This document shows positions 15,842 to 48,453 of a stretch of DNA of 58,346 nt, piece after piece; position 1 is the stretch's first letter, and every line of letters begins with the position of its first letter. The notes below the pieces were generated by a model. That model made no database searches. It saw only the letters and a list, made by a program, of their open reading frames with translations, and was not told the DNA's origin. The translations under genes were made by a program, and so were the position numbers. The stretch comes from Candidatus Cloacimonadota bacterium (GTDB lineage: Bacteria; Cloacimonadota; Cloacimonadia; Cloacimonadales; TCS61): assembly GCA_018400535.1 (NCBI GenBank), contig JAGYMQ010000095.1:1-58346 (forward strand), written 5' to 3'.

Positions 15842-15985
15842 ATTTCCCCCTTGTTTATGTTCTTTTTTTTGAAATTCCAGATTAATTCGTCAAACACTTT
15901 TTCAATTTTTTTTTAAAAAATTTTATTTCCTTGACTTCTAAATAAAAAATTAGATTTTTTCCGAAAAAATTTATCGGAGTTTTAT

Positions 15986-25361: not shown

Positions 25362-25401
25362 TCAAAAAAATTTAATTAAAAAATCGTAAGTTTGGAGTAT
25401 T

Positions 25402-31040: not shown

Positions 31041-31048
31041 TTTTGCTC

Positions 31049-31765
31049 CTACTTTTTTACCAATTCTTGTAACGTTATAACTTCAAATTTATTATAATAT
31101 ATCCATTGCATAATTTCTCTAAACTCATCTGGTGGACAATTGCTTCCAAAGCCTTCGTCATCATGATATATTTTGTGAAAGCCCAATATAACCGCATATT
31201 CATTATTCTCAACAGCTCGAATTATTCTGGAGAAGATGATTTCTGGCGTAAATGAACTATCATAAGAAAAATATCCCAAATTCGTTCTGTCTATCGGGTA
31301 AAATTGCGGGATATCAATACTGCTGCGGATATTGTCATAATATTTTAAAATGATCGCTAAATGTTCTCCATTAGCAGCTCCAGAAGGTAAAGCAAATGAT
31401 TTTGGATTAAGATTATGTTCTTGCAAATTCAACAGATCTTGATGGATCTCAGATTCAACTTCCAGAAGAGAATAATCGGGCAAAAATGGATGGTTCACCG
31501 TATGACCTCCAATTTCCCAGTTATGTTGATTTGCCATTTCTTCGATCTGCTGCCAATTGCATTTTCCTTCCATTCCGATTTTACCACTATTGATAAAACT
31601 CGTAACTGGAAATCCAAATTCTTGTAATATTGCTAATGCGTGCGAGTATTGACTTTCATAAGCATCGTCGAACGTAATGACGATGTAAGGCTTTTGCTCA
31701 GTGAAAATAGTCGGTGAGCTGCAACCAATCATAATTACAAAAAACAGACTAAATATTTTTTTCAT
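31049..31765 (-). CDS. Lipoprotein polysaccharide deacetylase (CE4/NodB)
   Basis: Start at 31765 gives a lipobox MIG-C; ITFDD, EIGGHTVNH, FALPSG, ILGFH. Confidence 0.82.
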   Translation of the reverse strand: MKKIFSLFFVIMIGCSSPTIFTEQKPYIVITFDDAYESQYSHALAILQEFGFPVTSFINSGKIGMEGKCNWQQIEEMANQHNWEIGGHTVNHPFLPDYSLLEVESEIHQDLLNLQEHNLNPKSFALPSGAANGEHLAIILKYYDNIRSSIDIPQFYPIDRTNLGYFSYDSSFTPEIIFSRIIRAVENNEYAVILGFHKIYHDDEGFGSNCPPDEFREIMQWIYYNKFEVITLQELVKK

Positions 31766-32780
31766 AGGAAAAATTGACCTGCAAGCCGATTTCATAATAA
31801 TTATCATCAAAATCTGGTGTAAATAAACTGGCATTAATTCCCATCATAAAATGCTTTGAGAAAGGATAGAGATGCAAAAAGGAATATTCGATATTCAGAT
31901 AATCGCTAGAAAATTCTTCAATTTTGTTATAGCGATAAAAAAAGTAATTTTCCAACGATGCGAGCTTGAACTTCAAAAAGCTTTGGGACTGAGAATTCTG
32001 TTTTTGCGAAAGCTCAAAACTTTCTAAAAATAAATTTGAACCAAATTCAAAATATTGGATAGGCCGAACTATGATCTCCCACAAAGTTTTGATCTTATCA
32101 CCCTTTTCACGATTTGGCAGATATTGATAAACAAAACTCTGATAAAAAGTAAGATATGGAATTTCGAATTTTGTTTCTATTCCAAAAGAATGATTTTTTG
32201 TATTGTATTCTTCGTTTCTCCCCACGAATAAATAATAGATTTTTGCCTTTAAATTTTTATGTTTCCAATTTAATTCCAGATTTCCGATCAAATAGTGGAA
32301 ACTGTTGCCAGCGAGTAAGCCTTTGACAGCATATTTTTTCTTATGGAAAATAATTTCTCCGCCATTGAACTGATAATTCTCGATCACGCCCAGATCGTAA
32401 AACCGATCCTTCACTTGCAAAGCGTAGATTTGCGATTCTGCTCCATATTTTAAATCATCATATTTTGCAGAAAAGATGAAATCGGAAATTTCATAACTGA
32501 CACCCAGCCTGTTCAATAAAATTTCTCTCGCATAGAATTTGTCATTATAAGTAAGATCAAACCAAAATTTGCTATTCTGTCTCAGACGATATTTCCAACC
32601 AGCAAAAAAGACATTTCTATCAAAATAATTCGTAGTTTTGTATTCACGGTCGGGAAAGTGATCGAAACCAATAAACGAATTCAGTTGGAAATAGAAATTA
32701 TCCCGATCAAACATTTCCAGAGCAAAGGATTTTGTCAGAATAAAGAAAAATATTAGGAATAGGATTCTATTTCTTTTCAA
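31749..32780 (-). CDS. Putative outer-membrane beta-barrel protein
   Basis: TTG start behind GGAG gives a signal peptide; alternating aromatic strands; C-terminal GLQVNFSY. Confidence 0.6.
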   Translation of the reverse strand: MKRNRILFLIFFFILTKSFALEMFDRDNFYFQLNSFIGFDHFPDREYKTTNYFDRNVFFAGWKYRLRQNSKFWFDLTYNDKFYAREILLNRLGVSYEISDFIFSAKYDDLKYGAESQIYALQVKDRFYDLGVIENYQFNGGEIIFHKKKYAVKGLLAGNSFHYLIGNLELNWKHKNLKAKIYYLFVGRNEEYNTKNHSFGIETKFEIPYLTFYQSFVYQYLPNREKGDKIKTLWEIIVRPIQYFEFGSNLFLESFELSQKQNSQSQSFLKFKLASLENYFFYRYNKIEEFSSDYLNIEYSFLHLYPFSKHFMMGINASLFTPDFDDNYYEIGLQVNFSYEKNI

Positions 32781-33993
32781 CGAGAATCTCCAAAATTGAT
32801 AAAAGTTGCGTGGCAAGTTTGTTACGATTAAAATTTTTTGACACGAATTTTCTGCCATTATTTTGATACTTTTCCATCTGCTCTGGATTATTTTTTAGAA
32901 CAAGAATTTTTTCGGTCAGATCCTCTGCACTATCCGGTTCAAAACTAATTCCAGCTTCTGCTTCCTGCAAAATTTCTTTTGCTTCTCCTTTCACACCTAA
33001 AAGAATCGGTAAACTTGCCGACATATAATCAAATAACTTGGATGGGATCGTAGTTTCAAAGACTTTTATATTACGTAATGGAATAACACCACAATCCGCT
33101 ATGGAAAAGTATTTATTCACTTCTACTTTAGGAATTTCTCCCACAAAATGTACATTATTAATTTTTTCTCTTTTTTTATGATCAAGAAGTTTCTGCTTTT
33201 CTGGTCCTGATCCAAGAAATAGAAAGCCAATTTTTTCCATTTCCAGTTTTTTAGCAGCTTGCAGAATTGTTTTCAAATTTTGCGCAAGTCCTAAGTTTCC
33301 AGCATAGACAACCAAAAAATTATAACTTTTTTTATATTTGGATAATAATTCAGGCTGCGGGTTAATCTTCTGATAACTAAGATCGCTGCCATTGCGGATA
33401 ACTTTTATCTTTTCCTTTGGAATTCCCTTTTTAATTATCCTTTGTTTGAATCTTTGTGTTACAGCAATTATCAAATTGGAATTGTTATAAAGCGCTTTTT
33501 CCAGTTTATGACTGAAATGGATTATTTTTGGATTATTCAATTCACCCATCTCGATAGCTGCATCAGGCCAAAGGTCTCGCACTTCGAAAACAAATTTAAT
33601 ATTGGGGTATATCTTTTTCAGCCACAAACCAATTTTTCCCACAAATAATGGTGGTGAAGTCACGTAAACTAGATCAAAATTTTTCCAGTTGAAAACCGTA
33701 TGAAGCGTTCCCAATAGCATAAATGAGCCATAAAAGAACAAACGCGTGATACTTGATTTTTTGGGATTAGTATAAACCCAAACTCTGTGAATGTGGAAAT
33801 TCTCCATTTTTTCTTTGATAAATAATTTTCTTTTATAATCTTCAAAAATTATACCGCGTGGATGATTCGGCATTTCTGTAAGAACAGTGACATCGTGCCC
33901 ATTTTCCGCAAAATTACGTACATTCGCCAGCGCTCGGTTTGTAGTTGCTCCAATTTCTGGATAAAAATACTGGGTGATGTAAAGGATTTTCAT
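32767..33993 (-). CDS. GT4 glycosyltransferase, WbuB-like
   Basis: TQYFYPE, PNHPRG, TSPP, EVRDLWPD, YAGNLG, PSKLFDYM. Confidence 0.9.
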   Translation of the reverse strand: MKILYITQYFYPEIGATTNRALANVRNFAENGHDVTVLTEMPNHPRGIIFEDYKRKLFIKEKMENFHIHRVWVYTNPKKSSITRLFFYGSFMLLGTLHTVFNWKNFDLVYVTSPPLFVGKIGLWLKKIYPNIKFVFEVRDLWPDAAIEMGELNNPKIIHFSHKLEKALYNNSNLIIAVTQRFKQRIIKKGIPKEKIKVIRNGSDLSYQKINPQPELLSKYKKSYNFLVVYAGNLGLAQNLKTILQAAKKLEMEKIGFLFLGSGPEKQKLLDHKKREKINNVHFVGEIPKVEVNKYFSIADCGVIPLRNIKVFETTIPSKLFDYMSASLPILLGVKGEAKEILQEAEAGISFEPDSAEDLTEKILVLKNNPEQMEKYQNNGRKFVSKNFNRNKLATQLLSILEILVEKK

Positions 33994-33995
33994 CC

Positions 33996-35393
33996 TCAGG
34001 TTTTCCTCAAGATTTTAATCAATTTAATTTCAAAAGGTTGCAATTCGATAATTTTTTCATTTTTAGTATTGCCAATTTTTTGGTTGATCAACTGATATTC
34101 TCCATCAAGATAGACTTCAAAAAGGTCTAATGTATTATTAACATTGACTTTGAGTGGAAAAGATATTTCATTTTTAGAAGTATTTGAGATTATTAGAAAT
34201 ATAGTGTTTTTGTAGTCATAAGCGGTATAATCCACATCCCACAGAAGCTTACCAAAATGATCATTTTTGTCATCATTAATTTTTAAAACGTCATTATCAA
34301 TCAAATCAGGATAGTGGTAACCTTCCAAAATAGCTTTCTGAAAATCACTTTTACGAAATTCCCAAATTATTCGTTTTAGATTTTGGTAGGATGTTTTATT
34401 TATGCGATAATGACAATAAATATTAATGCCTTTTGCACCGCAAACAATGCTATCGTAAAACATAAAACGATGTTCTTTGTAAGTCGGATAGCGCGCTGTC
34501 GTTGAGCCTAATTTGATGTTTTTATGATAAGCCTGCAGAGTAACGCCATATTTTTTCTCTGAATAATGCTCTCTATTATAATCTAAAATATATTTTTTGC
34601 CGACCACGGCGTTGAAATGAAATTCCGAAAGGCGATAAAATTCTGGCATAAATTCTTCCAGATCAGTGTATATATCAGATTTTTTATGTAATGGATAGAT
34701 TTGCGGAGTGAGAATATCTACAAAATTGATCAAATAGGGATAGCGTTTTACGTAATCTCCCACAATACAAGCAGATAATTTTAGCTTATCAGATTTTTCC
34801 TGAAGAACATCATAAGCCTGCTTGGTGTTCGCATAATTCCAATTATCTTTTTGGACATCATCATTAAAATACCAGTGTACACGATCATTATCAATATATT
34901 TTTGGAAATGAACAGGAAAAACATTCAGCGGAATTATCTCCGAATCATAAATGTCATAAGTTCTTAAGAAAAACTCCAGCGGGAAATCATTGATAATCCT
35001 CTCAGCATTTTTGTTATGAACATAGTTATGCGGTTTCAGATAAAAAACAATTCCTGTAGCAACCTTATCATTATATAATTGAGAAACACGATTATACGGA
35101 TCTTTCACTTCAAATTCATCATAAGCCAATTCCAGTTGTGGAGCATAAGGTGGCCAATAGGTTTTAGCAAAATTTTCACCTTTTTGAGAAGAACCTTCAT
35201 ACCAATTTATCATGAAATATTTTTCGCCGTGACGAGTAAATTCGGAATTGGATTTACTGATAATAACAGGAGTATCTTCCAAGAGAAAAGAGGCGCGTAG
35301 AGAATCCAAATCTAACGATAACAATAAAAATATTATTAACGATATAAAATTTTTAAAACTAATCAAACTTGATAAATTCATTGATTTTTTCAT
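33996..35393 (-). CDS. Hypothetical exported protein, possible TIM-barrel glycoside hydrolase
   Basis: N-terminal hydrophobic segment; DILTPQIYP, LQAY...YPT..E.RFM.Y.SIV.GAKGI pattern; beta-rich tail LQPFEIKLI; start uncertain. Confidence 0.5.
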   Translation of the reverse strand: MKKSMNLSSLISFKNFISLIIFLLLSLDLDSLRASFLLEDTPVIISKSNSEFTRHGEKYFMINWYEGSSQKGENFAKTYWPPYAPQLELAYDEFEVKDPYNRVSQLYNDKVATGIVFYLKPHNYVHNKNAERIINDFPLEFFLRTYDIYDSEIIPLNVFPVHFQKYIDNDRVHWYFNDDVQKDNWNYANTKQAYDVLQEKSDKLKLSACIVGDYVKRYPYLINFVDILTPQIYPLHKKSDIYTDLEEFMPEFYRLSEFHFNAVVGKKYILDYNREHYSEKKYGVTLQAYHKNIKLGSTTARYPTYKEHRFMFYDSIVCGAKGINIYCHYRINKTSYQNLKRIIWEFRKSDFQKAILEGYHYPDLIDNDVLKINDDKNDHFGKLLWDVDYTAYDYKNTIFLIISNTSKNEISFPLKVNVNNTLDLFEVYLDGEYQLINQKIGNTKNEKIIELQPFEIKLIKILRKT

Positions 35394-36381
35394 AAACTTC
35401 CATTACTGATAATTGTTTCAAACATTTAATATTACAATCTTTTTCCGGATATAAGCATGGCTGACAGGATAAATTCTTTTTAATAATATGCACCTTGTTA
35501 GAATAGGGAGCTGTTTTTCTTTCATCACCTGGACCAAAGATCGTGAAAATTTCTGTATCAAAGGCAGATGCAATGTGGCCTAACCCTGAATCAGAATTGA
35601 GAAAAAAATCAGCTTTTTTAATTATTGCTGCAATGTTCTCTAAAGGTTCATTTTTGACTATAAGTGAATTCGTTTTCCGAGCTATTCTTTCTGATTCTTT
35701 TAATTCATCAGGACCAGCTGCTATTATTATCTTGTTCTTAGGATGATCAGCTTTTATTCTCTTTATTAAATTGATGAATTTTTCATTTTCCCATCTACGA
35801 TGTTTACCTTTTGAACTAGTTCCCACATGAACTACCATTTTTCTAAAATCAATTAGATTGTTTTTCTCAATAAAATCTTCAGCAAAGAGTTCAGCTTCCT
35901 GAGATAAGTTCAGAGATATCTTTATCTCTTTCAAATAGTATTTTTTTTTCGTAACCAAACTCCATAAATTCATATTTACTTTTACGCGATGTAACGAACG
36001 TTCAAATTTATTTTGTTTTGTATATAATATTGGGATTTCTTTTTTTAAATATTCTCCAACTCGTTCTTTCGCTCCAACGAGATAGGAAAAAAAAGCAAGC
36101 TTGATCGGCTTGCTTGCAAAGCTGATCGAAGTTACGATAGAAACATCATATCTTTTTCTTCTCAAACTTTGGATTATCTTAAAAAGATTCCTTATCTCAT
36201 AATTTGAATAAAATATTTTATTAATGAAATGAGGGTTTGTTATAGGAAATTTTGCAGCAGAATTAGTATAAAACAGATCAATCTTTGCATTTGGAAAATC
36301 ATGATAAACTTGGTTTAACATCGGCAATGCCATGATCATATCACCCATCCCAAAAGTATGAATGATCAATATTTTTTTCAT
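35359..36381 (-). CDS. GT9 (heptosyltransferase-like) glycosyltransferase
   Basis: GMGDMIMALP, RRW, NSDSGLGHIA, IFGP, CQPC. Confidence 0.88.
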   Translation of the reverse strand: MKKILIIHTFGMGDMIMALPMLNQVYHDFPNAKIDLFYTNSAAKFPITNPHFINKIFYSNYEIRNLFKIIQSLRRKRYDVSIVTSISFASKPIKLAFFSYLVGAKERVGEYLKKEIPILYTKQNKFERSLHRVKVNMNLWSLVTKKKYYLKEIKISLNLSQEAELFAEDFIEKNNLIDFRKMVVHVGTSSKGKHRRWENEKFINLIKRIKADHPKNKIIIAAGPDELKESERIARKTNSLIVKNEPLENIAAIIKKADFFLNSDSGLGHIASAFDTEIFTIFGPGDERKTAPYSNKVHIIKKNLSCQPCLYPEKDCNIKCLKQLSVMEVYEKINEFIKFD

Positions 36382-37325
36382 TTTATTCTACTCCATATTT
36401 TCATGACTAAGGCTTTTATTCGAAAAAAAGCATTCTTTTGATAATTTTGCCATTTATTTGCATAGTCATTAAAAATTTTTTTCCCTGTTAATTCATGCAA
36501 AATCTTTAACTGCTTTATATGAAGGTTATGATAAAAATAACTAGCGATAAAATTATGTTCTGACCACAGATCATACCAACTCCAAAAACCAATATCCCAT
36601 TTTTTTAGATTTTCACTCAAATTTTGAATATGAAGCTGAAACAATTCTTCATATTTATCATCGACCTGCATAAGATCATATATTGACCAGATTGCAGATA
36701 TATACCCATTTAGGACAGATGAAGGTTTAGTAGTTGTGTATTCTTCCAGACAGATAAAATCTTTTTGGTTAGAAAAAACACCGCCCTTATCAATCGAAAC
36801 TCCAAAAGATAATGATGCCTTACGAGCACTTTCCAAATATTGTTCTTTCTGGGTTTCAAGATAAGCACGAGTGAGTGCAGAAATCCCAAACGCTTGCCCT
36901 AATGCTGATGACCAATTTCCATACAAACCAAAAAGGCGAACTGGAAATTTATTAATCCAAACACCATTACATTGCTTATATGTTTTTTGGTTCTTTACTA
37001 ACCAATTACAATGTGATAAAAATTCTTTCATCCATCTTTCGGAAACTGATTTTATAAACACTTCATAAGCACCCAATGCATATTGACCAATTTCTATTGC
37101 ATTATAATAATACTTATCGTCTTCACCTCTATATAAGATAATATCATTGATATCTTTTGCTCCACTAAACCAAGTTGCTTTCTTCGAAATATCCCAGAAA
37201 TAATTGTTCCCATTATATTTATTCATAGTAATTGGATAATCAATATGCCAATAATCTTCATTTCTAAAACCAAAGTACATTAGAATTGTTTTAAAGTTTC
37301 TAGCTGATTTATCTGCTCTTATCAT
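36378..37325 (-). CDS. D-glucuronyl C5-epimerase family protein (C5-epim_C)
   Basis: IGQYALG, WSSALGQ...S.L.RAY, LEEY...VLNG, WYDL, YH.LH..QL; the three Tyr-bearing active-site motifs of GLCE are present. Confidence 0.85.
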   Translation of the reverse strand: MIRADKSARNFKTILMYFGFRNEDYWHIDYPITMNKYNGNNYFWDISKKATWFSGAKDINDIILYRGEDDKYYYNAIEIGQYALGAYEVFIKSVSERWMKEFLSHCNWLVKNQKTYKQCNGVWINKFPVRLFGLYGNWSSALGQAFGISALTRAYLETQKEQYLESARKASLSFGVSIDKGGVFSNQKDFICLEEYTTTKPSSVLNGYISAIWSIYDLMQVDDKYEELFQLHIQNLSENLKKWDIGFWSWYDLWSEHNFIASYFYHNLHIKQLKILHELTGKKIFNDYANKWQNYQKNAFFRIKALVMKIWSRIK

Positions 37326-37326
37326 T

Positions 37327-38601
37327 TTAAGATTCCAAAGAATATATTATATTTGACAAACTTTTTGTTAAAATAATTTGATTATATTTATTGATTTCAT
37401 TATAATTAATATTTTTTTCAAAATCTTCTTTTTTTATTTTTACAAGTTGATTTATTGTATGCGAAATGTCCTCTAATGAATCATTTTCACAGACCAGTCC
37501 TAATTTAGCTTTTTTTAATAAGATAGACACTTCTGACATTTCTGTATTTATTGATATGATAGGTTTTTTAAATTGAGCATATTCAAAAATTTTAATAGAA
37601 ATGGTATCAATAATTTTTCGGGGAAAGTAAAAATGTAAAAAGGCATCAGCTTCACTTTCTAAATTTATTAACAAATCTCTTTTAATAAAACCTTGAATTT
37701 TAACAAAATCTATATTATTTTCCTCAATCCATTTTTTAGTTTCCTTGTTAACGCTTCCACAAACAATAAGTTCAATTTTAACATTTTTTTTGTCTTCTAA
37801 AAAATTTTTAACACCTAATAAAACATTTTTAGGGTTATAAGCTATATCATTGATGTTAAATTTTCCAGCATATAATATTTTAAAGATATCCCCATTGTTA
37901 AATTTTAAACTAATATTTTTGTAATCATTAGGATCAAAACCATTATAAATTACTTTAGAATTAACAAAATCATATCTTGCTTTGATATCATTTATTATTG
38001 TTGAAGTTGTCGAAATCAAATAATCAATATTATTTAGCACAAATTTTTCCATCCACTTATTATTAATCTTTCTTATTCTACTTTGATTATTTTGATATGA
38101 ATCATTTAACCATGAATCCCTATAATCTACAATAACTTTTACGTTTGTAATTTTTTTTAGAATAACTCCTAAAATAAATAATGAGAATGGAGCTCCAGTT
38201 ATTACAATAGTTTTTGTTTCAAATTTTCTTATTACTTTGACAATTTTCCAAAACCATCTTATACACCATGTAATTTGGATATCGGGTGAAAAAAAAATAT
38301 CTTTGATAATTTTTAATACTCTTGATAAAATAAATTTGTTATTTGAAGTAACTTTATAAAACTTTGAAGAATTTTGCCTTTCCTGGGAATCCTTAAAAAA
38401 GCTCTTTAACCTGATGATTTCAGCTTCTTCTGGGATTTCATCAAATAATTTTTCGTTCCAATGATGCCTACCTTGATCTGCAGTTACAACAATTGGCTTT
38501 AATTTATATTTTGGTAGATATTTAATAAACCGCATTGCTCTAAATGTTCCGGTAACATTATATGGAACATAGCTGAATGTTATAAAAAGAATTTTTTTCA
38601 T
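37327..38601 (-). CDS. GT4-like glycosyltransferase
   Basis: R...F.KYL, W, ITGAPFS, VDYRDSW, NGFD, YAG, KIFEY. Confidence 0.82.
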   Translation of the reverse strand: MKKILFITFSYVPYNVTGTFRAMRFIKYLPKYKLKPIVVTADQGRHHWNEKLFDEIPEEAEIIRLKSFFKDSQERQNSSKFYKVTSNNKFILSRVLKIIKDIFFSPDIQITWCIRWFWKIVKVIRKFETKTIVITGAPFSLFILGVILKKITNVKVIVDYRDSWLNDSYQNNQSRIRKINNKWMEKFVLNNIDYLISTTSTIINDIKARYDFVNSKVIYNGFDPNDYKNISLKFNNGDIFKILYAGKFNINDIAYNPKNVLLGVKNFLEDKKNVKIELIVCGSVNKETKKWIEENNIDFVKIQGFIKRDLLINLESEADAFLHFYFPRKIIDTISIKIFEYAQFKKPIISINTEMSEVSILLKKAKLGLVCENDSLEDISHTINQLVKIKKEDFEKNINYNEINKYNQIILTKSLSNIIYSLES

Positions 38602-39726: not shown

Positions 39727-39747
39727 TATGAATTACCTTTAACATAT

Positions 39748-40932
39748 TTATTTTAGAATTCCTTCATACAAATCTATCAATTCTGACTCTTTATTTTTAT
39801 ATTTACTTTGAACAGAAAAAATAGAGTTAGATTTTATCCTATTATAAAGTATCATATTTTGGAACAAGTTAACAATATTCATATAAATACCTACTGATTT
39901 TTTTGTTTCAACTAAAATTCCATTTTTATTATTCTCGATGATTTGCGAAGGACCTTGAGTTCTGGTGGCGATCGATGGTACACCACATGCCATTGCTTCA
40001 ACTAAAGCCAATCCGAAAGCTTCATTTAAAGATGGTAATACAAAAACATCTGCAGCTCTGTAATAATCTGCCAGCTTATTTTGAGGAAGGTGATCAACAA
40101 GCTTAACTTTATTTTCAATTTCATATTCTTTTATCAGTTTTAAATAGGTTTTTTTTAATGCTCCTTTACCAACCAAAATAAGTAAACTATTCGGAAATTC
40201 TTTCTTAATTCTTCTCATTGCTTGAAGCAAATATTTATGCCCTTTGTCTGTAATGAAATTTCCCACTGATAAAATAATTTTCAAATCACTTGGAAGTTGC
40301 AAATTTCTTCTTGCTTCATTTTTAGGGCCAGCGTGAAACAATTCATGATTATAACTATTTTCTATCATAACCACATTAGCTTCAGGAAAAACGCTTTGGA
40401 AATGCAAGGTGAATTTATGTGAAACACAAACAATCTTTTTTGCCTTTTGTACTGTCTTTTTTATGAGAACGCGTTCTTTTTCCCTATATACATTACCCCT
40501 TGTAAGCTCATGATCTTTAGGATAAAGTCGATAAAAATCGAACCCATGTGACGATATTAAATAAGGAATTTTCAGTTCTTCTGCAAGATACATAGCAGCT
40601 GTTCCTGTTGGAAAAAGGGTATGAGCATGTATGAGATCAAATTTTTGATTTCTAATTAGTTTTTGAATTTTTTTTGAAATTTGAATTGGATAAAATTCTG
40701 ATAACATATTTTGAGGTAATCCATAATAAAATATTTTTTTTTGCCTTTCAGCAGGAATTTCCGAACTTAATCGGGGATTTTTAAAATTTTGGCGATAGGC
40801 TGATTTCCTCAAATATAAATATAAATTTATCGGAAAAATAGTAAAAGAATCAACATTATATTTACTTAATTTACAAATCTGGTTGTGAATAAATGAATTA
40901 GAATAATATGGAGAAATGTATAAAACTTTCAT
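39748..40932 (-). CDS. GT4 glycosyltransferase (TuaC-like)
   Basis: DLIHAH, HGFD, KGH, PSLNEAFGLALVEAMACG. Confidence 0.9.
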   Translation of the reverse strand: MKVLYISPYYSNSFIHNQICKLSKYNVDSFTIFPINLYLYLRKSAYRQNFKNPRLSSEIPAERQKKIFYYGLPQNMLSEFYPIQISKKIQKLIRNQKFDLIHAHTLFPTGTAAMYLAEELKIPYLISSHGFDFYRLYPKDHELTRGNVYREKERVLIKKTVQKAKKIVCVSHKFTLHFQSVFPEANVVMIENSYNHELFHAGPKNEARRNLQLPSDLKIILSVGNFITDKGHKYLLQAMRRIKKEFPNSLLILVGKGALKKTYLKLIKEYEIENKVKLVDHLPQNKLADYYRAADVFVLPSLNEAFGLALVEAMACGVPSIATRTQGPSQIIENNKNGILVETKKSVGIYMNIVNLFQNMILYNRIKSNSIFSVQSKYKNKESELIDLYEGILK

Positions 40933-40984
40933 TTTATCACCATACTTGTTGAAATGTTCGTTGAATTTTTCACATTGATATCTT

Positions 40985-42190
40985 CTAACATATTCTATAC
41001 ATACCTCTTAGAATTGGTAACGTGAACACATTTCCCTTTGATGAATATCTACGATTATCTGGTGTAATAACAATTTCAGAATTCTCGATCTGTAATGATA
41101 TTTCATCGGCATTATATGGTATATTATCAAAATGGAACTTGTTATTTTTCTGATTCAATATCATTTTTTCTGAAATATTTTTATACATATATATCTCAGA
41201 AATTGTAGCATTCCATACATGTTTTTTTTCCAAATAATATAATATTTTAGTTAAACTTTTATTATCAGTAAAAATATTTGGTTCTTGTAATGATATGTGA
41301 TTTCTAGAAGGTGACATATGTTCAAAAATATTAATAATTTTGTTATTATTTAGTAAATAATCAATTTCTTTATAGAATCTATTTTCATAGTGAGTTTTAA
41401 GAAGTTTGATTACTTTCGATTTAAAGTTCTTTTTTTTCAAAATTATCGGGTTAAAAAGATTGCCTTGAAGTGTTGTTGGTATATCATAAATAGAATTTTT
41501 CCCAAATTTCTTTATTGAATAGTTGTCAGATTTAGACTCAATAGGACCATGAATGTATCTGTTATATACATTTTTTTTTAAAGCTCTGTTTTTATGAAAA
41601 TTAGCATATCTAGACCACCATTCAAATCCAGATTCTTCAATACTCTGATCACTGAATTCATTGGAAGCATAACCAGGATATTTCCCACCCTTTGGATACT
41701 CACCAATAACCTCTTTCATAATTTCTTTTCCATAGGAAATTCTATCTTTTGCTTCTTGCAGAGAAGTGAAGGTCTGCCATTCTTGGATATAATCATACCT
41801 TTCTTTGCCAGCAATACCATGATCTGTTCCATGATATGCTATTTCAAAACGAGGATTATTATGTATATTTCTAAAAAAATCTATAGTAGCTGCATCCGAA
41901 TTCAACATCTTGGAAATCATTGGTATATCAGAGTTATTGACTAATCCAGATCTTATACCAACTGGCACAAAGAATGTAACTTTAACATCGGGGAAGGGTT
42001 TTAGTAATTTGTTTATCAAATAATAAAATGCAGAATTCTTTCTATTCTTTGCATATCCCCAATCTTCTTCAGGTTCAATTTTACCATTTTTATTACGATC
42101 AACCCACACATTTGCAAGATCATCAATTCCCATTACAACTGGAGAAATAGCCCCATATTTCCATTTACAAATCTTTACTCTATTTCTCAT
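40985..42190 (-). CDS. CE4-like polysaccharide deacetylase (DUF2334-like)
   Basis: MGIDD, VTFFV, FEIAYHGTDH, KYPGY. Confidence 0.7.
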   Translation of the reverse strand: MRNRVKICKWKYGAISPVVMGIDDLANVWVDRNKNGKIEPEEDWGYAKNRKNSAFYYLINKLLKPFPDVKVTFFVPVGIRSGLVNNSDIPMISKMLNSDAATIDFFRNIHNNPRFEIAYHGTDHGIAGKERYDYIQEWQTFTSLQEAKDRISYGKEIMKEVIGEYPKGGKYPGYASNEFSDQSIEESGFEWWSRYANFHKNRALKKNVYNRYIHGPIESKSDNYSIKKFGKNSIYDIPTTLQGNLFNPIILKKKNFKSKVIKLLKTHYENRFYKEIDYLLNNNKIINIFEHMSPSRNHISLQEPNIFTDNKSLTKILYYLEKKHVWNATISEIYMYKNISEKMILNQKNNKFHFDNIPYNADEISLQIENSEIVITPDNRRYSSKGNVFTLPILRGMYRIC

Positions 42191-44165
42191 ATTTTTTTAT
42201 CCATATTTTTCTTATTTTTTTCACTATAACAATTCTAGAATATTTTTTAAAATTTGTTTTTTTAATACTTCTAATTGCTTTAAAATTATTTCTAGCAATT
42301 GCTATTTGTATATTTTTAATATTCTTTTCTAAACATAATTCGATTCTTTTTTGCATTACCACTTTATGCAATCCCTTTTTTCGGTATTCAGGAATAGTAA
42401 AAGCATCAAATAGAAAAGCTGTACCCTCTTTAACTCTATGATAATAATATTGAAATGTCTTTATATTTCCACTAAATACAATCCAAGCTAAATATACAAT
42501 TTTATCGTTTTCTTTATCAATAACAGCTAAGGGAGTATAAGACGTTGGATTCTTCAATCTAGGCAAAATATTCTTTTTATAATGATTACTTAATCTATAT
42601 TTTGAAAACTCTTTTAATTCTTTTGCATCCTCTAAATTTACTCTTCTCAAAGTATACTTAGCATCCAAGGAAATAGAATCTAATCTATCAAAATCATATA
42701 GTTTATAAATGTATCCTATCGACACAAATTTATAAAATATTTTGCTAATTTCATTTACAATAGCTTTCTCATAATTTTTATCGATAAGCAATAAGCGCCA
42801 ATTTGAATATAAATATACAGAAAAAAGAATTATCTTAGCCCAAAAAATAATATGTGATCCAAATGTTGTTTTTTCAATTAGTAAACCTATAAAATAAAAA
42901 ATTGAAGCATTTAAGACTAATAATAACCATAAGTTATAACTATAATTTACAAAAAAGTCTTTTTGTAATCTATTAATATTTAAGATCGCTTTCAAGATAA
43001 AAGCTACAATTGTTGCTATAGCTGCACCAATTATTCCAAACAATTTAATTAAAATAAAATTCAATAAAATATTAACAATAGCAGAAATTGTTGTATATTT
43101 TGGTAATACTTTTGTATTTTTTGTAATGTGAAAACCTGTGCCTGTAAATGCGCTTACACCAAAGGCAATATAAGCAATTCCTAAAGGAAATATCAAATAA
43201 ATCGCTCCCATATATTCAGGTTTTGCAAATAACATTAATACATAATCAATGAAATATGATATTGGTAAAATGAAGATAACAGACATTAAGATAAAAGTTG
43301 TTATCATAAAATTTAATCTATTTTTTACTAAGGGAATATCTTTGAGATTACTATATGCAAATGGAGACCAAGCCTTAGTTAACGGTTGAACCAGAAGTAA
43401 AGCGATAATCAAAGAAAACTTGTATGCAAATGCATAGATTCCTAGTTGTTCTTTGCCAAGCATAAATTTGATAAAAATATGATCAGATGAATTTAAAATC
43501 CAAAAAGAGAGAGCAGAAGGTATTAAATACACAGAAAAATTAAGAAACTTTTTTATTATTACGAAATTAAAATTGAATGCAAGATGTTTTAACCTTTTCA
43601 AAAAAACGAAATATACTATTAGTATAATTAAACCACTCGCAATCTGGCCATAGAAAACACTAATAATTCCTAGTTTTAGTATTACAACAAAAAAAATAAT
43701 AAAGCTTAGTTGAAGAATGGACTGAAGTATCTGTAATATAATAAACTTAAGTGCTTTTTTCTCTATTCTTAAGATTGATGAATTTAATTTTGTAAAGAAA
43801 AGAATAAATTGAGATGCGTATAAGACAAAATAAATCGTAGTATCTTTACTCTGGTTGAAGAATATAAGCTTGAAAAATAAAAAAAGAATAATTCCTAACA
43901 ATAGATTAAATATCAAAGAAAACCAATATGCCGATTGTATTATTCGTAATTTATTGGAATCATCATATTCATAATAGAAACGCACCAAAGCATCTGTAAT
44001 TTTTAGCCCCAGCACCCATGAAAGAATCATTCCCATAACCTGATAATAAGATAATTGACCAAAATCTTCTAAGCTGAAATTGGAGATATAAAGAGGGATT
44101 AACAAGAAATTTATACTTTTTAAAATGATAGTTCCTACTGAATAAATGACAGCTTGTTTTTTCAT
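42180..44165 (-). CDS. wzx: Wzx flippase fused to a C-terminal GNAT acetyltransferase
   Basis: Many TM helices with LIPLY/D.FI/LGIY/FGIIGAAIAT; soluble tail with FT.PEYRKKGL and N.KA motifs. Confidence 0.82.
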   Translation of the reverse strand: MKKQAVIYSVGTIILKSINFLLIPLYISNFSLEDFGQLSYYQVMGMILSWVLGLKITDALVRFYYEYDDSNKLRIIQSAYWFSLIFNLLLGIILFLFFKLIFFNQSKDTTIYFVLYASQFILFFTKLNSSILRIEKKALKFIILQILQSILQLSFIIFFVVILKLGIISVFYGQIASGLIILIVYFVFLKRLKHLAFNFNFVIIKKFLNFSVYLIPSALSFWILNSSDHIFIKFMLGKEQLGIYAFAYKFSLIIALLLVQPLTKAWSPFAYSNLKDIPLVKNRLNFMITTFILMSVIFILPISYFIDYVLMLFAKPEYMGAIYLIFPLGIAYIAFGVSAFTGTGFHITKNTKVLPKYTTISAIVNILLNFILIKLFGIIGAAIATIVAFILKAILNINRLQKDFFVNYSYNLWLLLVLNASIFYFIGLLIEKTTFGSHIIFWAKIILFSVYLYSNWRLLLIDKNYEKAIVNEISKIFYKFVSIGYIYKLYDFDRLDSISLDAKYTLRRVNLEDAKELKEFSKYRLSNHYKKNILPRLKNPTSYTPLAVIDKENDKIVYLAWIVFSGNIKTFQYYYHRVKEGTAFLFDAFTIPEYRKKGLHKVVMQKRIELCLEKNIKNIQIAIARNNFKAIRSIKKTNFKKYSRIVIVKKIRKIWIKKYEK

Positions 44166-44168
44166 TTA

Positions 44169-45260
44169 TTAAAAAATTCCCCAAAAAACTTTTTTAAGTA
44201 AATATATTTTTTTTAAGAATAATATTCTTTTGCAAATTACTGATTTACTATTTGGAAAATTTAATGAATATAATGGAATAAAGTCTCTTGTCCAAGTAAA
44301 TTTCCATTTATATCCTCCTGACCCCCAAAAATAGTTAATATTGTTTTGAGAACAATACTCCAAAACATGAGCCATTCTAATTTTATTTAAACGAAATTTG
44401 TAAAAGTCAGGATCGTAACCGGTATTCCAAGAAACTAAAGAATTTTTTTTTCTGAAAGCAATATTATATGATATAATTTTTTTATTAACTTCTAATCCAA
44501 ATATAAATATATTTTTTTTTGAACGTGGAAAAAGATCCTTAAAAAATTCCTTGATATCATCATCTAAAAAAAGATTTTTTCTATTGTTTCTACCAAATTT
44601 CTTTTCCAAAATTTTTTGCTTTTTAGTATATAGGCTTATGATTTCCTTAAATAAATCTAGAGTAATGCTTTCATTGTTATATACTTTAAATTTGTAGTCA
44701 TATTTTTCTAATTTATTTTTCAAATTGTTAATATTTTTTGGAAGAATAGTTCTAAAATAAGATTGATTATTCAATTTAGGTTCTGGAAAATATGGCATTT
44801 CATTTTTAAACTCTAAGTATTCATTATATTCATGTGATTTTAAGTATTGAAATAAATCAGTCCGAGAATCTATATTTGCAAGAAAAAGGGTATCCCATCT
44901 TTCGGATTTGTTTTGTATTACTTTTAGTATTTCCTTAACAATTGTTTTCTTTTTAGTATTATCTGCATTTATTACAAAATTTAGAGTATCTCCAAATCCT
45001 AAAAATCTCAATTGATTATATTTAATAAATTTTCTATTAAAATATTTTATATACAAAGGGGCAATTCCAACTATTTCATTTTGTTGATATATTAAAATAA
45101 TGAATAGCGCATCATTTTTACTTTTATTGTGTTTCCACCATAAATAATTATAATCAAAAGAAGAAAAGAAAGAACAATCAGTATCCTTTTGATACAAATT
45201 ATTCCATACCTCCATCAGATCCATAAAATCAGAATCGATTGTAATAACTTTACTCTTCAT
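44169..45260 (-). CDS. GNAT acetyltransferase, BcsL/CelD (Acetyltransf_6) type
   Basis: WNNL...FFSSFDY..LWW, VGIAPL, GYDPDF, YKWKFTW. Confidence 0.78.
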   Translation of the reverse strand: MKSKVITIDSDFMDLMEVWNNLYQKDTDCSFFSSFDYNYLWWKHNKSKNDALFIILIYQQNEIVGIAPLYIKYFNRKFIKYNQLRFLGFGDTLNFVINADNTKKKTIVKEILKVIQNKSERWDTLFLANIDSRTDLFQYLKSHEYNEYLEFKNEMPYFPEPKLNNQSYFRTILPKNINNLKNKLEKYDYKFKVYNNESITLDLFKEIISLYTKKQKILEKKFGRNNRKNLFLDDDIKEFFKDLFPRSKKNIFIFGLEVNKKIISYNIAFRKKNSLVSWNTGYDPDFYKFRLNKIRMAHVLEYCSQNNINYFWGSGGYKWKFTWTRDFIPLYSLNFPNSKSVICKRILFLKKIYLLKKVFWGIF

Positions 45261-45267
45261 ACAATCA

Positions 45268-46542
45268 TTAATCCCTAAATTTTTTTATCAATCCCAAGTT
45301 CACCCAAAATAATAAAGCAACCGAGAATTGTGCAATAAAAATATCTGTAATACCTGCGAATAATAGACAGATAAAACCAATATTAGCAAATTGAACTAAT
45401 TGAGCATATTTTTTATTATTACTTCCCCTTTTAATATTCCTATATAAATTTCGAAGTATCAAATTAAAATAACCAAATGTTCCGAAAATCCCCGTAGCTA
45501 CAAATATATGAAAAAAAAGATTATGTGGATGAATCACCCAAAGATATTCATTTAAGTTATTTTTATAAAAATTATAAAAACCATCAAAACCAATACCTGT
45601 TAACCAGTTTTTTGAAATAATTATAATTGAATTATACCAAGCCAGATATCTTAACATCATTGAACTATCTACTATATTAGAAATTTTTAGTCTATCCTTA
45701 AAACTACTTGGTAGAAAAAAAATTAATAAAATTCCTAGAACGAAAGAAAGAAACAATAATTTCCAATCCCGTTTAATGAATATAATAATTAATAAAATAC
45801 CAAATCCAAAAGCTAACAAAGCCATCCTTGTATAAGTGAAGATACTACCCATCAAGATTAATAATGTAGTAAGTAAATAGAAATACTTTTCAATATTTTT
45901 TTTTGTGTAAAAAAAAAATCCTAAACTAATGAAAAAGAGAAAAATATAGAACCCATTTATTGTCATTGCCGTAACCCAGAGAGACCCAATTCTTTCATTT
46001 GGATTATTTAAAGCAATTATAATCCCAATAATTCCTACTAAAGACGCAATCAATACTTCTATTTTAAAAATTATAACAATTTGTTTCCTTTTGATTGATA
46101 AAAAACCAATAAGAACATATAGACTTATTGGTATAATAAAAGTCTGCAAACTCTTCGATATTCCCATCATCAAAGAAGAAGAATTGAAAAAACCAAAAAA
46201 ACTACCGATAGCGATACAAACCAATGAAATATAATCTATATTCTCATATTTCTTAATTTGTAAAATAAATATTAAAAGAAAGATAAATACTATGCTCCAA
46301 TAAACATATATATTTGGTTTTAAAAAAAATAGTGAAAAAATTATCAGAAAAGAATAGAGTTTAAAATCATAAATTGTAAAATATAGAATAAACATCGTAG
46401 CGATAAGAAAAAGCTTAATAAATAAAGAAAACTCAAACCCATTTAGAATAAGAGTTTCAGAGATAGGTAGAATTACTAATGCTAATAATAAACTAAATAA
46501 AAAGATTATTATTTTTTTTTTATCATCCAAACAAACTTTCAT
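45268..46542 (-). CDS. Wzy polymerase / O-antigen ligase family protein
   Basis: Polytopic; TYTR, R...W, GIG..GF, HPHNLF; next to wzz. Confidence 0.82.
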   Translation of the reverse strand: MKVCLDDKKKIIIFLFSLLLALVILPISETLILNGFEFSLFIKLFLIATMFILYFTIYDFKLYSFLIIFSLFFLKPNIYVYWSIVFIFLLIFILQIKKYENIDYISLVCIAIGSFFGFFNSSSLMMGISKSLQTFIIPISLYVLIGFLSIKRKQIVIIFKIEVLIASLVGIIGIIIALNNPNERIGSLWVTAMTINGFYIFLFFISLGFFFYTKKNIEKYFYLLTTLLILMGSIFTYTRMALLAFGFGILLIIIFIKRDWKLLFLSFVLGILLIFFLPSSFKDRLKISNIVDSSMMLRYLAWYNSIIIISKNWLTGIGFDGFYNFYKNNLNEYLWVIHPHNLFFHIFVATGIFGTFGYFNLILRNLYRNIKRGSNNKKYAQLVQFANIGFICLLFAGITDIFIAQFSVALLFWVNLGLIKKFRD

Positions 46543-47683
46543 ATAATAACTTTATCTTATCTTTTTTGGTTGAAAGAACTTTATTAATAATAATAAGAAA
46601 ACAACTAAAAACAAATGCTAGTGTAAAAGATAGTATACACATGAATCCTCTTTTTGGCCAGGTTCTTAGACCAGAAGGAATTGCCGAATCAATTATATTA
46701 ATAGTTTGTGTATCACGCAATTCTTGAAGCTTTGCTATCTCGTATTGAGGATAAACTGTTTCATATACTTTCTTCAAAATCTCCAATTTTGTCATTAACA
46801 ATGTGTATTTTTGAGATAAATTAGGAATACTATCAAGTGGTATTTGATAATTAATAATAGAATTCTTGCCAGTTTCAATTTTCTTTATTTGTTTTATCAA
46901 TTCATCGGTTTTTAATTCATACATTTTGCTTTGATTTGAATCTGTTTTTAAATATGATTTAGATAATTGTAACTTGATATCTTCTTCCATATATTGTGAA
47001 ACTAATTCTGTATAAGAATTTAACATTGGAGGCAATTGACTTTCTAATTCCAAAACATTATATTTCTGCTGAAATTCTTTGAGCTCTTCTGTATATTTAA
47101 CTAATTGGTCGTTTATCTCGCTTATCCTTTTTTCCAGAAATTGTCTTTCTTCTTTCCCTTTTGTCATTCTAACATTTTGTAAATAATCTTCCAATTCTCT
47201 GACTAAATAATTTGCAATATCAGCCGAAAGTTCTCTATTCTTTGTAATAATACTGATGGAAAATATCCCCGTCTCTTGATCTAATTCAACAGATAAAATT
47301 TCTTCCCTAAAGGTTTTTAAGGTTGTTTCTCGGACATAATAAGGATCTTCGTGCTCAATTTCAAAATAATCAATAAGATCAAATTTATCTATAACAGGTT
47401 CTAAAAAAGTTCTACTTTTAATTACGTCTATCAATTCACTCTGTTCTTGAGAACCACCTAATAATGAAGATATATCACCACTCATTATTGAACTGAACAT
47501 TCCAATTTCCGAATTATTTGATATTGTAGGTTTAAAAGTTGCTGTCGATGTCCATTTTTCCGGCACCACCAAGCTATATATCACCGCTGCAATACTCACG
47601 ATCAAAGTCGTGATAATTATAAATTTTTTATGTTTCGCCAATATGATCAATATATCCAGAATATCTATTTCATTCTTTTCCAT
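46523..47683 (-). CDS. wzz: Wzz/GumC-like chain-length determinant
   Basis: EIDILD.., two TM helices, coiled coil, IID.A.P...WPKR; start moved to ATG 47683 behind GAGG. Confidence 0.85.
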   Translation of the reverse strand: MEKNEIDILDILIILAKHKKFIIITTLIVSIAAVIYSLVVPEKWTSTATFKPTISNNSEIGMFSSIMSGDISSLLGGSQEQSELIDVIKSRTFLEPVIDKFDLIDYFEIEHEDPYYVRETTLKTFREEILSVELDQETGIFSISIITKNRELSADIANYLVRELEDYLQNVRMTKGKEERQFLEKRISEINDQLVKYTEELKEFQQKYNVLELESQLPPMLNSYTELVSQYMEEDIKLQLSKSYLKTDSNQSKMYELKTDELIKQIKKIETGKNSIINYQIPLDSIPNLSQKYTLLMTKLEILKKVYETVYPQYEIAKLQELRDTQTINIIDSAIPSGLRTWPKRGFMCILSFTLAFVFSCFLIIINKVLSTKKDKIKLLYESLFG

Positions 47684-47691
47684 AGCGTTCC

Positions 47692-48453
47692 TCAATTTAT
47701 TTCTATCCCGATCGGGCAATGATCACTGCCCATAATACTTTGTTTAATAAATGCGTCCTTCACTTTCGGCATAAACCCTTTATTCACAAAAAAATAATCG
47801 ATGCGCCAGCCGATATTTCTGCGACGTGCACCGAAACGGTAAGTCCACCAGGAATATTGCTCCGGTTCTTGATTGTATTCCCGAAAAGTATCAATCCAGT
47901 CATTTTCCACCAATTTATCCAGCCAGGCACGTTCGATCGGTAGGAACCCTGAAGTATCTTCATTATCTTTGGGATTTGCCAGGTCGATCTCTTTATGCGC
48001 TGTGTTGTAATCTCCGCAAACGACCACGTTTTTTCCTTCCTCACGCAATTTCTGCATCAGTTCGAACATCTTATCATAATAATTCAATTTATATTGCAAG
48101 CGTTCTTCATTCATTTTCCCATTTGGAAAATAGCAATTTATAAGCACAAAATCCTTATAATGCAAAATAAGTAATCTGCCTTCTTTATCGTAAGCCGGAT
48201 CTCCGATGGAGAATTCAACTTTTTCCGGTTCCAATTTAGAAAATACCGTTACTCCCGAATAACCTTTTTTCTCGGCAAAGTTCCAGTATTGGTGGTATTG
48301 AGTTTGATCTTTAATTTCTTGTGGTATCTGTTCTTCTTGCAGTTTAGTTTCCTGTATTGCCAGAATATCGGGATCTTCTTTACCCAAAAAATCCAGAAAA
48401 TTCTTTCGCACTACAGCACGCAAACCATTCACGTTCCAAGAATATATTTTCAA
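47692..48453 (-). CDS. xth: Exodeoxyribonuclease III
   Basis: SWNVNG, QETK, GDYN, WRIDY, SDHCP. Confidence 0.96.
   Translation of the reverse strand: MKIYSWNVNGLRAVVRKNFLDFLGKEDPDILAIQETKLQEEQIPQEIKDQTQYHQYWNFAEKKGYSGVTVFSKLEPEKVEFSIGDPAYDKEGRLLILHYKDFVLINCYFPNGKMNEERLQYKLNYYDKMFELMQKLREEGKNVVVCGDYNTAHKEIDLANPKDNEDTSGFLPIERAWLDKLVENDWIDTFREYNQEPEQYSWWTYRFGARRRNIGWRIDYFFVNKGFMPKVKDAFIKQSIMGSDHCPIGIEIN

Follow-up and report, generated by a model that had tools for sequence, protein, structure and literature searches.

A Wzx/Wzy polysaccharide locus of an uncultured Cloacimonadota bacterium encodes a predicted hexuronyl C5-epimerase, a sulfotransferase and deacetylases

Short bacterial genes of the hexuronyl C5-epimerase family PF06662 were catalogued in O-antigen clusters in 2011, including one that encodes a 323-amino acid protein in Escherichia coli O112ab, whose O antigen is described as containing L-iduronic acid (L-IdoA; PMC3068255). 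In the archaeon Halobacterium salinarum, Agl32 has been reported to generate IdoA on a dolichol phosphate-linked tetrasaccharide, with Agl30 and Agl31 adding sulfate and flipping as the subsequent step (PMC12624080); this is the only worked-out prokaryotic parallel to the route considered here. Loci for sulfated polysaccharides are described as showing strain-specific gain and loss of the sulfotransferase (PMC8205485, PMC11641403), and, according to a 2015 review, prokaryotic glycosaminoglycan-like polymers had not been found to carry sulfate (PMC4432689). We analysed a stretch of 58,346 nucleotides (the window; contig JAGYMQ010000095.1 of assembly GCA_018400535.1) from a Candidatus Cloacimonadota bacterium, whose genome (G000) is an uncultured metagenome-assembled genome (MAG) of 2.62 Mb in 146 contigs, 95.7% complete. 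The window contains a surface-polysaccharide gene cluster (31049-47683) in which a PF06662 gene and a sulfotransferase gene stand close together.

We propose, with moderate confidence, that this cluster is an O-antigen-type Wzx/Wzy/Wzz heteropolysaccharide locus that would yield a polymer bearing both sulfate and a C5-epimerised hexuronic acid. The proposal draws on gene content, motifs, folds, predicted topology, genes for precursors and for 3'-phosphoadenosine 5'-phosphosulfate (PAPS), and synteny. Gene families were assigned by Pfam and NCBIfam profile scans of the window proteins, and topology by a scan for transmembrane (TM) segments and signal peptides. Among the open reading frames (ORFs) of the window, 15 are co-oriented on the minus strand (29979-47719), with intergenic gaps of -92 to +52 bp, and the block is flanked by housekeeping genes, xth and nth on one side and methylmalonyl-CoA mutase on the other. 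The GC content is 28.3% over 31049-47683 and 26.5% over 36378-47683, as compared to a genome mean of 37.1% and about 36% in the flanks; low GC of this kind typically marks variable surface-glycan islands. A first-pass annotation of the window, made from its letters alone, had listed a C5-epimerase with intact EEY, YDL and YH motifs, a PAPS sulfotransferase, two CE4 deacetylases, three GT4 glycosyltransferases, two GNAT domains, wzx, wzy and wzz in one co-oriented cluster, with no ugd or PAPS-synthesis genes in the window. Our profile matches place these genes at the same positions and agree with every item except the second CE4 protein, which scores under the Pfam cut-off and can be recognised as a deacetylase only from its fold and motifs. 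The list had also passed over a GT9 gene, two genes for exported proteins and wecB.

The gene at 36378-37325 encodes the predicted C5-epimerase, a 315-amino acid protein that matched PF06662 (C5-epim_C) at 139.5 bits against a gathering cut-off of 23.3 and is the single PF06662 protein encoded in the whole genome. In phmmer searches, its residues 98-298 aligned with residues 369-579 of animal GLCE chains, that is, with the C-terminal barrel (zebrafish Glce, 4pw2, E = 1.3e-20; human GLCE, 6hzz, E = 8e-20). The motifs LEEY (E194-E195-Y196), WYDL (Y251-D252-L253) and FYH (Y265-H266) are present, and Y196, Y251 and Y265 fall on zebrafish Glce Y468, Y528 and Y546, which we take, together with the preceding glutamate, to be the catalytic residues. 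An alignment of 30 homologues showed no change at Y251 or Y265 and conservation of 90% or more at E194, E195 and Y196. The membrane anchor and β-domains that precede the barrel in animal GLCE are missing from the window protein, which corresponds to the barrel, and the topology scan detected neither a signal peptide nor a TM segment, pointing to a cytoplasmic enzyme. We collected 74 homologues of 173-488 amino acids; those with a name came from Aeromonas dhakensis (at 42% identity the closest named relative found), Ignavibacterium, Ignavibacteriales and Candidatus Thiodiazotropha. The enzyme would most likely convert glucuronic acid (GlcA) to L-IdoA.

The sulfotransferase (38602-39726; 374 amino acids) exceeded the cut-offs of both PF00685 (35.5 vs 22 bits) and PF13469 (Sulfotransfer_3; 34 vs 27 bits), and it is predicted to be PAPS dependent and cytoplasmic, with no signal peptide or TM segment detected. 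Its motifs PRGGSTW and RHPCAVVASQ, presumably the 5'-phosphosulfate loop and the 3'-phosphate motif, are invariant in an alignment of 30 homologues, out of 131 found; the alignment has 22 invariant columns, including R52, G54, T56, W57, R195, H196, P197 and S203. A sequence search against Protein Data Bank (PDB) chains gave no match at E up to 1. The AlphaFold2 model (pLDDT, the predicted local distance difference test, 83.7) matched TPST and SULT structures in Foldseek with a probability of 1.00 (TPST 8w5z, 5.2e-6; TPST1/2; SULTs; 4gox, 4gbm and 3rnl). Among the matches listed, the nearest were tyrosylprotein sulfotransferases, cytosolic SULTs and olefin-synthase/curacin sulfotransferase domains, and none was a heparan-sulfate sulfotransferase (NDST, HS2ST, HS3ST or HS6ST). 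The genome encodes a second sulfotransferase, of 254 amino acids (PF13469, 59 bits), at a contig edge (C75 100-3650; L019), next to genes for a TagF-like CDP-glycerol glycerophosphotransferase, a nucleotidyltransferase and a CDP-alcohol phosphatidyltransferase; this region may serve a second sulfated glycopolymer or a sulfated lipid.

Supply of both PAPS and UDP-uronate, which the first-pass annotation had left to the rest of the genome, was found there. Three adjacent minus-strand genes on another contig (C121 4067-8760; L008) encode a DASS/CitMHS anion symporter with TrkA_C domains, a 626-amino acid ATP-sulfurylase/adenosine 5'-phosphosulfate (APS)-kinase fusion (Sat-CysC) and a PHP protein, for which 3',5'-nucleoside bisphosphate phosphatase was the best-scoring NCBIfam model. 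From its gene content, the trio looks like a dedicated sulfation-supply operon. In the 95.7%-complete genome, no NIR_SIR match to sulfite reductase was found and PAPS_reduct reached 27 bits only; therefore, sulfation, rather than sulfur assimilation, is the probable use of PAPS here. Of 232 species genomes in the phylum, which are related and not independent, 24 have APS kinase, 24 have Sulfotransfer_3 and 19 have both, and the five genomes with Sulfotransfer_3 but without APS kinase are 64-89% complete. PAPS synthesis in Cloacimonadota tracks sulfotransferases rather than sulfur assimilation. For the uronate, the genome encodes a TuaD-like UDP-glucose dehydrogenase (Ugd-like), a WecC-like dehydrogenase and a third NDP-sugar dehydrogenase, all outside the window. 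The gene for the WecC-like UDP-N-acetylmannosamine (UDP-ManNAc) dehydrogenase (C68 36880-41094, L003; L021:7775-9634) lies outside any polysaccharide locus, beside an orphan UpxY/NusG-family antiterminator gene in a stretch bounded by ahcY and hflK.

The second protein that had been listed as CE4 (40985-42190; 401 amino acids) is a predicted cytoplasmic de-N-acetylase of the CE4/Agd3/NDST-deacetylase type. It remained under the PF01522 cut-off (E = 0.055; 13.9 vs 23.1 bits) and is thus a member of the superfamily and not of PF01522. Residues D23, D24, H120, H124, E290 and H291 are conserved among its 128 homologues. Sequence searches against PDB chains returned nothing useful. In Foldseek, its AlphaFold2 model (pLDDT 93.5), which includes a C-terminal β-sandwich, matched the polysaccharide deacetylases 4dwe (1.3e-9) and 3rxz, the lipid-linked-sugar deformylase ArnD (8t0j, 5.3e-8), Agd3 (6nwz, 5.6e-7), PelA and human NDST1 (8cd0, 1.3e-4). 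For NDST1, the deacetylase domain is reported to be a homologue of Agd3 that forms a (β/α)7 barrel and carries an Asp-His-His triad (PMC10864358). The deacetylase gene overlaps by 11 bp the gene for a Wzx flippase fused to a GNAT domain, and close by lies a gene for an Acetyltransf_6 (FemAB/CelD-like GNAT) acyl- or aminoacyl-transferase (44169-45260; PF13480, 50.6 bits), predicted to be cytoplasmic; neither the deacetylase nor the Acetyltransf_6 protein has a detected signal peptide or TM segment. In a metagenome locus (L075), a homologue of the deacetylase (399 bits to the profile) overlaps an Acetyltransf_6 gene whose product is 24% identical (E = 1e-10) to that of the window. This translational coupling, here and in L075, suggests that deacetylase and acyltransferase form an N-acyl exchange module rather than serving N-sulfation. 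The metagenome locus (L075:6330-20710) further encodes a UDP-sugar dehydrogenase, an APS kinase, two sulfotransferases, a GT4 and a Wzx, as well as a Heparinase II/III-N/alginate-lyase-like protein. This lyase-fold protein, within what looks like a biosynthetic locus for a sulfated uronate glycan, could be a dermatan-epimerase-like enzyme.

The features of the Wzx/Wzy/Wzz pathway are all in the locus: flippase (PF01943/PF13440), polymerase (PF04932) and chain-length regulator (PF02706). The flippase gene (42180-44165) is a single ORF of 661 amino acids with 12 TM segments and a C-terminal GNAT domain at residues ~550-636 (PF01943, 70.9; PF13440, 50.4; PF00583, 26 bits). A Wzy_C-domain membrane protein with 12 hydrophobic segments (45268-46542; PF04932, 69.6 bits) was taken as the polymerase Wzy. 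The Wzz/PCP-type chain-length determinant (46523-47719; PF02706, 60.6 bits; TIGR01010, 61.9 bits, under cut-off) is a 398-amino acid ORF with two TM segments and a likely start at the Met at 47683. Four glycosyltransferases are encoded between these genes and the end of the block: a 394-amino acid GT4 (39748-40932; PF00534, 146.9 bits; best NCBIfam row TuaC, 139.6 bits, under cut-off), a 424-amino acid GT4-type enzyme (37327-38601; PF00534, 38.2; PF13439, 38.4 bits), a 340-amino acid GT9 of the heptosyltransferase family (35359-36381; PF01075, 98.5 bits; TIGR02195, 106.2 bits, under cut-off) and a 408-amino acid WcaI-like GT4 (32767-33993; PF00534, 82.4 bits; NF007640, 164.8 bits, under cut-off). 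The block ends with wecB (29979-31040), which lies 8 bp downstream of the CE4 gene at 31049-31834 and was counted as part of the block; its product is a non-hydrolysing UDP-N-acetylglucosamine (UDP-GlcNAc) 2-epimerase yielding UDP-ManNAc (PF02350, 376.3 bits; TIGR00236, 337.7 bits vs a cut-off of 210).

Comparison with other genomes showed that the epimerase belongs to a conserved gene order. PF06662 is unusually common in Cloacimonadota, being present in 95 of the 232 species genomes (41%) but in none of four other genomes of the same genus; in the phylum of a Prolixibacteraceae MAG, it was found in 13 of 301 sampled genomes (4%). A related-locus search with the single epimerase sequence returned no locus, and one with an alignment of 10 epimerase sequences returned two genome loci only. 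In another Cloacimonadota MAG of the same order (L017), a syntenic block located between Wzz, Wzy and Wzx genes encodes GT4 (45% identity), epimerase (53%), GT9 (46%), a 467-amino acid protein (39%) and WcaI-like GT4 (53%), without the sulfotransferase, the 401-amino acid deacetylase or the GNATs. Full-length homologues of the GT4 at 37327-38601 adjoin the epimerase gene in this locus and, with 25.5% and 23.5% identity, in two further ones (L104 and L103), and this GT4 appears to travel with the epimerase.

Co-occurrence of the epimerase with a sulfotransferase, which the first-pass annotation had proposed to survey, proved rare. Sulfotransfer_3 lies within 3 kb of PF06662 in 3 of the 95 PF06662-positive genomes (G000, G170 and G231), a count that was made with PF13469 only on fragmented assemblies and misses sulfotransferases seen solely by PF00685. 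The G170 locus (L103) encodes a PHP protein, GT4, epimerase, GT4, sulfotransferase and Wzx, and its PHP protein (L103:5718-6560) shares 33.6% identity with the PHP protein that our genome encodes next to Sat-CysC. The G231 locus (L104) encodes a weak PF06662 protein, GT4, PIG-L deacetylase, sulfotransferase and WbqC; here, the PIG-L/LmbE de-N-acetylase gene overlaps the start of the sulfotransferase gene by 16 nt (L104:4110-5734, contig C31), a second, non-homologous deacetylase-sulfotransferase pairing. Among 80 metagenome loci with the sulfotransferase subfamily (32 of at least 8 kb), one (L023) also encodes an epimerase, together with a WcaI-like GT4 (39% identical to that of the window), Wzy and WecB. 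The 130 immediate sulfotransferase neighbours from 76 of the metagenome loci, one of which is the query sulfotransferase itself through an overlapping ORF call, include 34 glycosyltransferases (21 GT4-type, 11 GT2 and 2 other), 4 Wzx, 2 Wzy_C, 2 APS kinases, 5 further sulfotransferases, 3 CE4 and 1 YdjC. With deacetylases accounting for only 4 of the 130, we do not put forward deacetylase-sulfotransferase adjacency as a general signature of N-sulfation. We also did not count as biosynthetic co-occurrence a locus from another phylum (L105; G260:C1:455000-474999) with PF06662 8.5 kb from a sulfotransferase; the intervening genes, among them ORFs of 1000 and 447 amino acids, have no homology to any cluster protein, and this may be a locus for utilisation rather than biosynthesis.

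From these data, we infer the substrates, the order of the steps and the polymer as follows. A phosphoglycosyltransferase encoded elsewhere would prime undecaprenyl phosphate, on which three GT4 and one GT9 enzymes would assemble a multi-sugar repeat unit at the cytoplasmic face. This unit would include a ManNAc-derived residue, made through WecB, and a uronic acid, made through the Ugd-like or WecC-like dehydrogenases. The signal-less PF06662 enzyme would invert C5 of the uronate, and the sulfotransferase, likewise signal-less, would add sulfate from PAPS delivered by the operon of sulfate symporter, Sat-CysC and PHP phosphatase. The cytoplasmic CE4-like enzyme would strip an N-acetyl group, and the FemAB-like and GNAT acyltransferases would re-acylate the amine. 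The Wzx-GNAT fusion would then flip the unit, Wzy polymerise it and Wzz set the chain length, and, once outside the cytoplasm, the glycan may lose acetyl groups to a CE4 lipoprotein. PAPS is cytoplasmic and these enzymes lack export signals; therefore, epimerase, sulfotransferase, 401-amino acid deacetylase and Acetyltransf_6 protein should act on the undecaprenyl diphosphate-linked unit before Wzx flipping, a UDP-sugar being also possible as the substrate of the epimerase.

Several points weigh against a sulfated, C5-epimerised polymer. The syntenic L017 locus lacks the sulfotransferase, and its subfamily has no match in 230 of the 232 phylum genomes, the two exceptions being this genome and one with a 26-bit match; the gene is therefore a recent addition, for whose product the glycan is a candidate acceptor. 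In the only metagenome locus with both genes (L023), the epimerase has Val at the position of the first catalytic Tyr. The Ugd gene lies at a contig edge and scores 531 bits against a TuaD equivalog cut-off of 700, and the PHP protein scores 201 bits, under its cut-off of 400. Since WecB is the only precursor enzyme encoded in the cluster, conversion of N-acetylmannosaminuronic acid (ManNAcA) to L-GulNAcA is a live alternative for the epimerase reaction, and the substrate may be GlcA or a different uronate, bound to a lipid or to UDP. A Wzy_C domain cannot tell a polymerase from a WaaL-type ligase. Profile scans of the window found neither a priming phosphoglycosyltransferase nor Wza; Bac_transf genes are present on contigs C28 and C77 of the same genome and Wza on C28, and O-antigen loci served by a distant initiating enzyme commonly lack one of their own. 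Last, the source is an uncultured MAG.

We consider it unlikely, although worth weighing, that the PF06662 enzyme makes something other than IdoA on a lipid-linked glycan, acting instead on a different uronate (ManNAcA to L-GulNAcA, or GalA/GalNAcA to L-altruronate) or on a UDP-sugar. This reading would agree with WecB as the sole precursor enzyme of the cluster, with the WecC-like dehydrogenase on C68, with the recurrence of WecB beside epimerase and sulfotransferase in L023, and with the reported diversity of bacterial PF06662 proteins, only one of which has been assayed (PMC4432689). It would also suit the predicted soluble, cytoplasmic enzyme, and a UDP-L-IdoA pathway has been proposed as a hypothesis for E. 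coli O112ab (PMC7685785). However, the characterised members, animal GLCE and Bermanella RED65_08024, are described as acting on glycan-bound GlcA (PMC4432689, PMC12624080), the one O antigen of bacteria that has been connected with a short PF06662 gene is reported to contain L-IdoA (PMC3068255), and a TuaD-like Ugd is present.

That the polymer is unsulfated, the sulfotransferase being a recent passenger that is unexpressed or acts on another acceptor (a lipid, a small molecule or a protein), appears very unlikely to us. The lack of its gene in L017 and in almost every other genome of the phylum would fit such a passenger, as would its position in the part of the island with the lowest GC, the peptides and small molecules sulfated by its nearest solved structures, and the second sulfotransferase on C75, which could be the real consumer of PAPS. 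Yet the gene directly abuts the next GT4 gene with a gap of 0 bp and starts 21 bp after the previous gene, its product keeps all residues invariant in the subfamily, and its relatives mostly neighbour glycan-synthesis genes, with the glycosyltransferase, Wzx and Wzy_C genes counted above. A dedicated PAPS synthase and a PAP-phosphatase-like gene, in a genome in which sulfite reductase was not found, likewise argue for sulfation of the glycan.

It is similarly improbable, in our view, that the locus applies the logic of heparan sulfate to the lipid-linked unit, with the NDST-deacetylase-like enzyme freeing the amine of glucosamine (GlcN), the sulfotransferase N-sulfating it and the GLCE homologue making IdoA. 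The first-pass annotation had suggested a sulfated, iduronate-containing, partly de-N-acetylated glycosaminoglycan mimic; taken in full, GlcNAc would be de-N-acetylated and N-sulfated by NDST logic beside GlcA epimerised to IdoA. It was right about the superfamilies, and the refuting condition that it had named, a genome without UDP-uronate or PAPS supply, does not hold. All three heparan-sulfate modification superfamilies are present, the 401-amino acid fold matches Agd3 and NDST1 and keeps the D-D/H-x3-H/H set, and deacetylase and sulfotransferase genes do adjoin elsewhere, with PIG-L in L104, the second sulfotransferase followed by the deacetylase homologue in L075, and CE4 or YdjC in 4 of 76 loci. 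Nevertheless, such a mimic is very unlikely, as the four glycosyltransferases match only GT4 and GT9 models, with none from GT2/GT45 or GT47/GT64, the families of the heparosan copolymerases KfiA/KfiC, PmHS and EXT, a Wzy route builds multi-sugar repeat units, the sulfotransferase is TPST/SULT-like with no NDST or heparan-sulfate O-sulfotransferase among the Foldseek matches listed, deacetylases show no obvious enrichment among the 130 neighbours, and the overlaps of the deacetylase gene with Wzx-GNAT here and Acetyltransf_6 in L075 point to re-acylation.

The remaining genes of the block encode three exported proteins. The CE4 polysaccharide deacetylase at 31049-31834 matched PF01522 at 69.4 bits against a cut-off of 23.1, contains the motifs TFDD and HTVNH and gave weak PgaB/IcaB/HfsH rows. 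It likely starts at Met24 (~31765) with a lipoprotein-like signal ending in ...VIMIGC and should therefore act outside the cytoplasm as a probable lipoprotein. Its gene follows that of a 369-amino acid exported ORF (31749-32858) with a hydrophobic N-terminal segment and a true start probably further in, for which Pfam and NCBIfam gave no match; language-model Atlas leads to spirochaete outer-membrane-protein-like clusters, Msp and Porin_O_P suggest that it is possibly an outer-membrane β-barrel. The order of a porin-like protein and a CE4 lipoprotein recalls PgaA/PgaB, here in the last part of a Wzx/Wzy locus. The third protein (33996-35393; 465 amino acids) has an N-terminal signal anchor and no Pfam, NCBIfam or PDB sequence match, and is possibly a glycoside-hydrolase-like TIM barrel, with an Atlas lead to a GH42-N-like cluster. 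A word-indexed search gave three homologues; in the phylum, 7 of 232 genomes carry one, adjoining the epimerase in 2 of the 7, and the link is not strict.

Elsewhere in the genome, contig C28 holds a second polysaccharide locus (~4200-21800; L102), with genes for Wza (Poly_export/SLBB), a small Bac_transf, WecG/TagA, Wzy_C, CE4, several GT4s and GT2s, a STAS protein and phosphomannose isomerase. This locus may supply the priming and export functions that are absent from the window cluster. Upstream of the cluster, the window encodes an 863-amino acid TMEM260-like protein O-mannosyltransferase homologue, a TPR-adenylate/guanylate cyclase and two GGDEF diguanylate cyclases (15986-18577 and 22196-27238), which might regulate how much surface polymer is made.

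Bacteria are known to make sulfated polysaccharides and, separately, O antigens with L-iduronate, and both are rare. If a sulfated, C5-epimerised polymer is indeed made, sulfate and epimerised uronate would be installed together on a lipid-linked unit, a bacterial parallel of the archaeal Agl pathway and a convergent, pre-polymerisation form of heparan-sulfate maturation. If N-sulfation were to hold, this would be the first natural bacterial polymer with GlcNS-IdoA-type motifs (GlcNS, N-sulfated GlcN), and soluble, prokaryote-expressible enzymes would be at hand for three steps. Soluble bacterial epimerases, deacetylases and sulfotransferases are described as sought for microbial heparin production (PMC13353177, PMC12834895); those of the window may be specific for their own repeat unit.

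Among described systems, E. coli O112ab and Shigella boydii type 15 resemble the window in that a PF06662 protein of about 320 amino acids is encoded among glycosyltransferases in a Wzx/Wzy O-antigen cluster, with a patchy, type-specific distribution (PMC3068255). They belong to another phylum, and the available text of that source reports no sulfotransferase, cytoplasmic deacetylase or acyltransferase set for them. The only bacterial PF06662 epimerase described there and in PMC4432689 as assayed, RED65_08024 of Bermanella marisrubri, has 448 amino acids as compared to 315 here. The synechan xss cluster of Synechocystis (PMC8205485) and the capsular polysaccharide (CPS)/O-antigen locus of Vibrio sp. 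KMM 8419 (PMC11641403) are described as having sulfotransferases in polysaccharide clusters with, or depending on, PAPS genes, as is the case here; in contrast to the window, the available text of these sources mentions no uronyl C5-epimerase, and the Vibrio capsule uses an ABC-transporter. A bacterial locus with both a GLCE-family epimerase and a sulfotransferase was not found in our searches of the open-access literature. Thus, each part is known singly, PF06662 from O antigens and sulfation from capsules and exopolysaccharides, and the combination in a bacterial Wzx/Wzy locus is new to the literature searched.

The Hbt. salinarum pathway, as its source describes it, shares with the proposed route the assembly on a lipid carrier at the cytoplasmic face, the conversion of GlcA to IdoA, sulfation from PAPS and flipping. 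It differs in being archaeal, in using dolichol phosphate and in transferring a product that is not polymerised onto protein, and Agl32, unlike the window epimerase, is reported as not detectably homologous to GLCE or PF06662 (PMC12624080). The animal heparan-sulfate enzymes share with the window the catalytic domain of GLCE (E = 1e-20, with its Tyr triad), the (β/α)7 Asp-His-His fold of the NDST1 deacetylase and the donor PAPS. They act after polymerisation, in the Golgi lumen and on a GlcA-GlcNAc polymer, unlike the predicted cytoplasmic route of the window, where the epimerase has no counterpart of the N-terminal domains, fold ranking does not place the sulfotransferase with the heparan-sulfate type and no heparosan-type synthase is encoded. 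The locus would work like a pre-polymerisation version of heparan-sulfate maturation, with which it shares three superfamilies.

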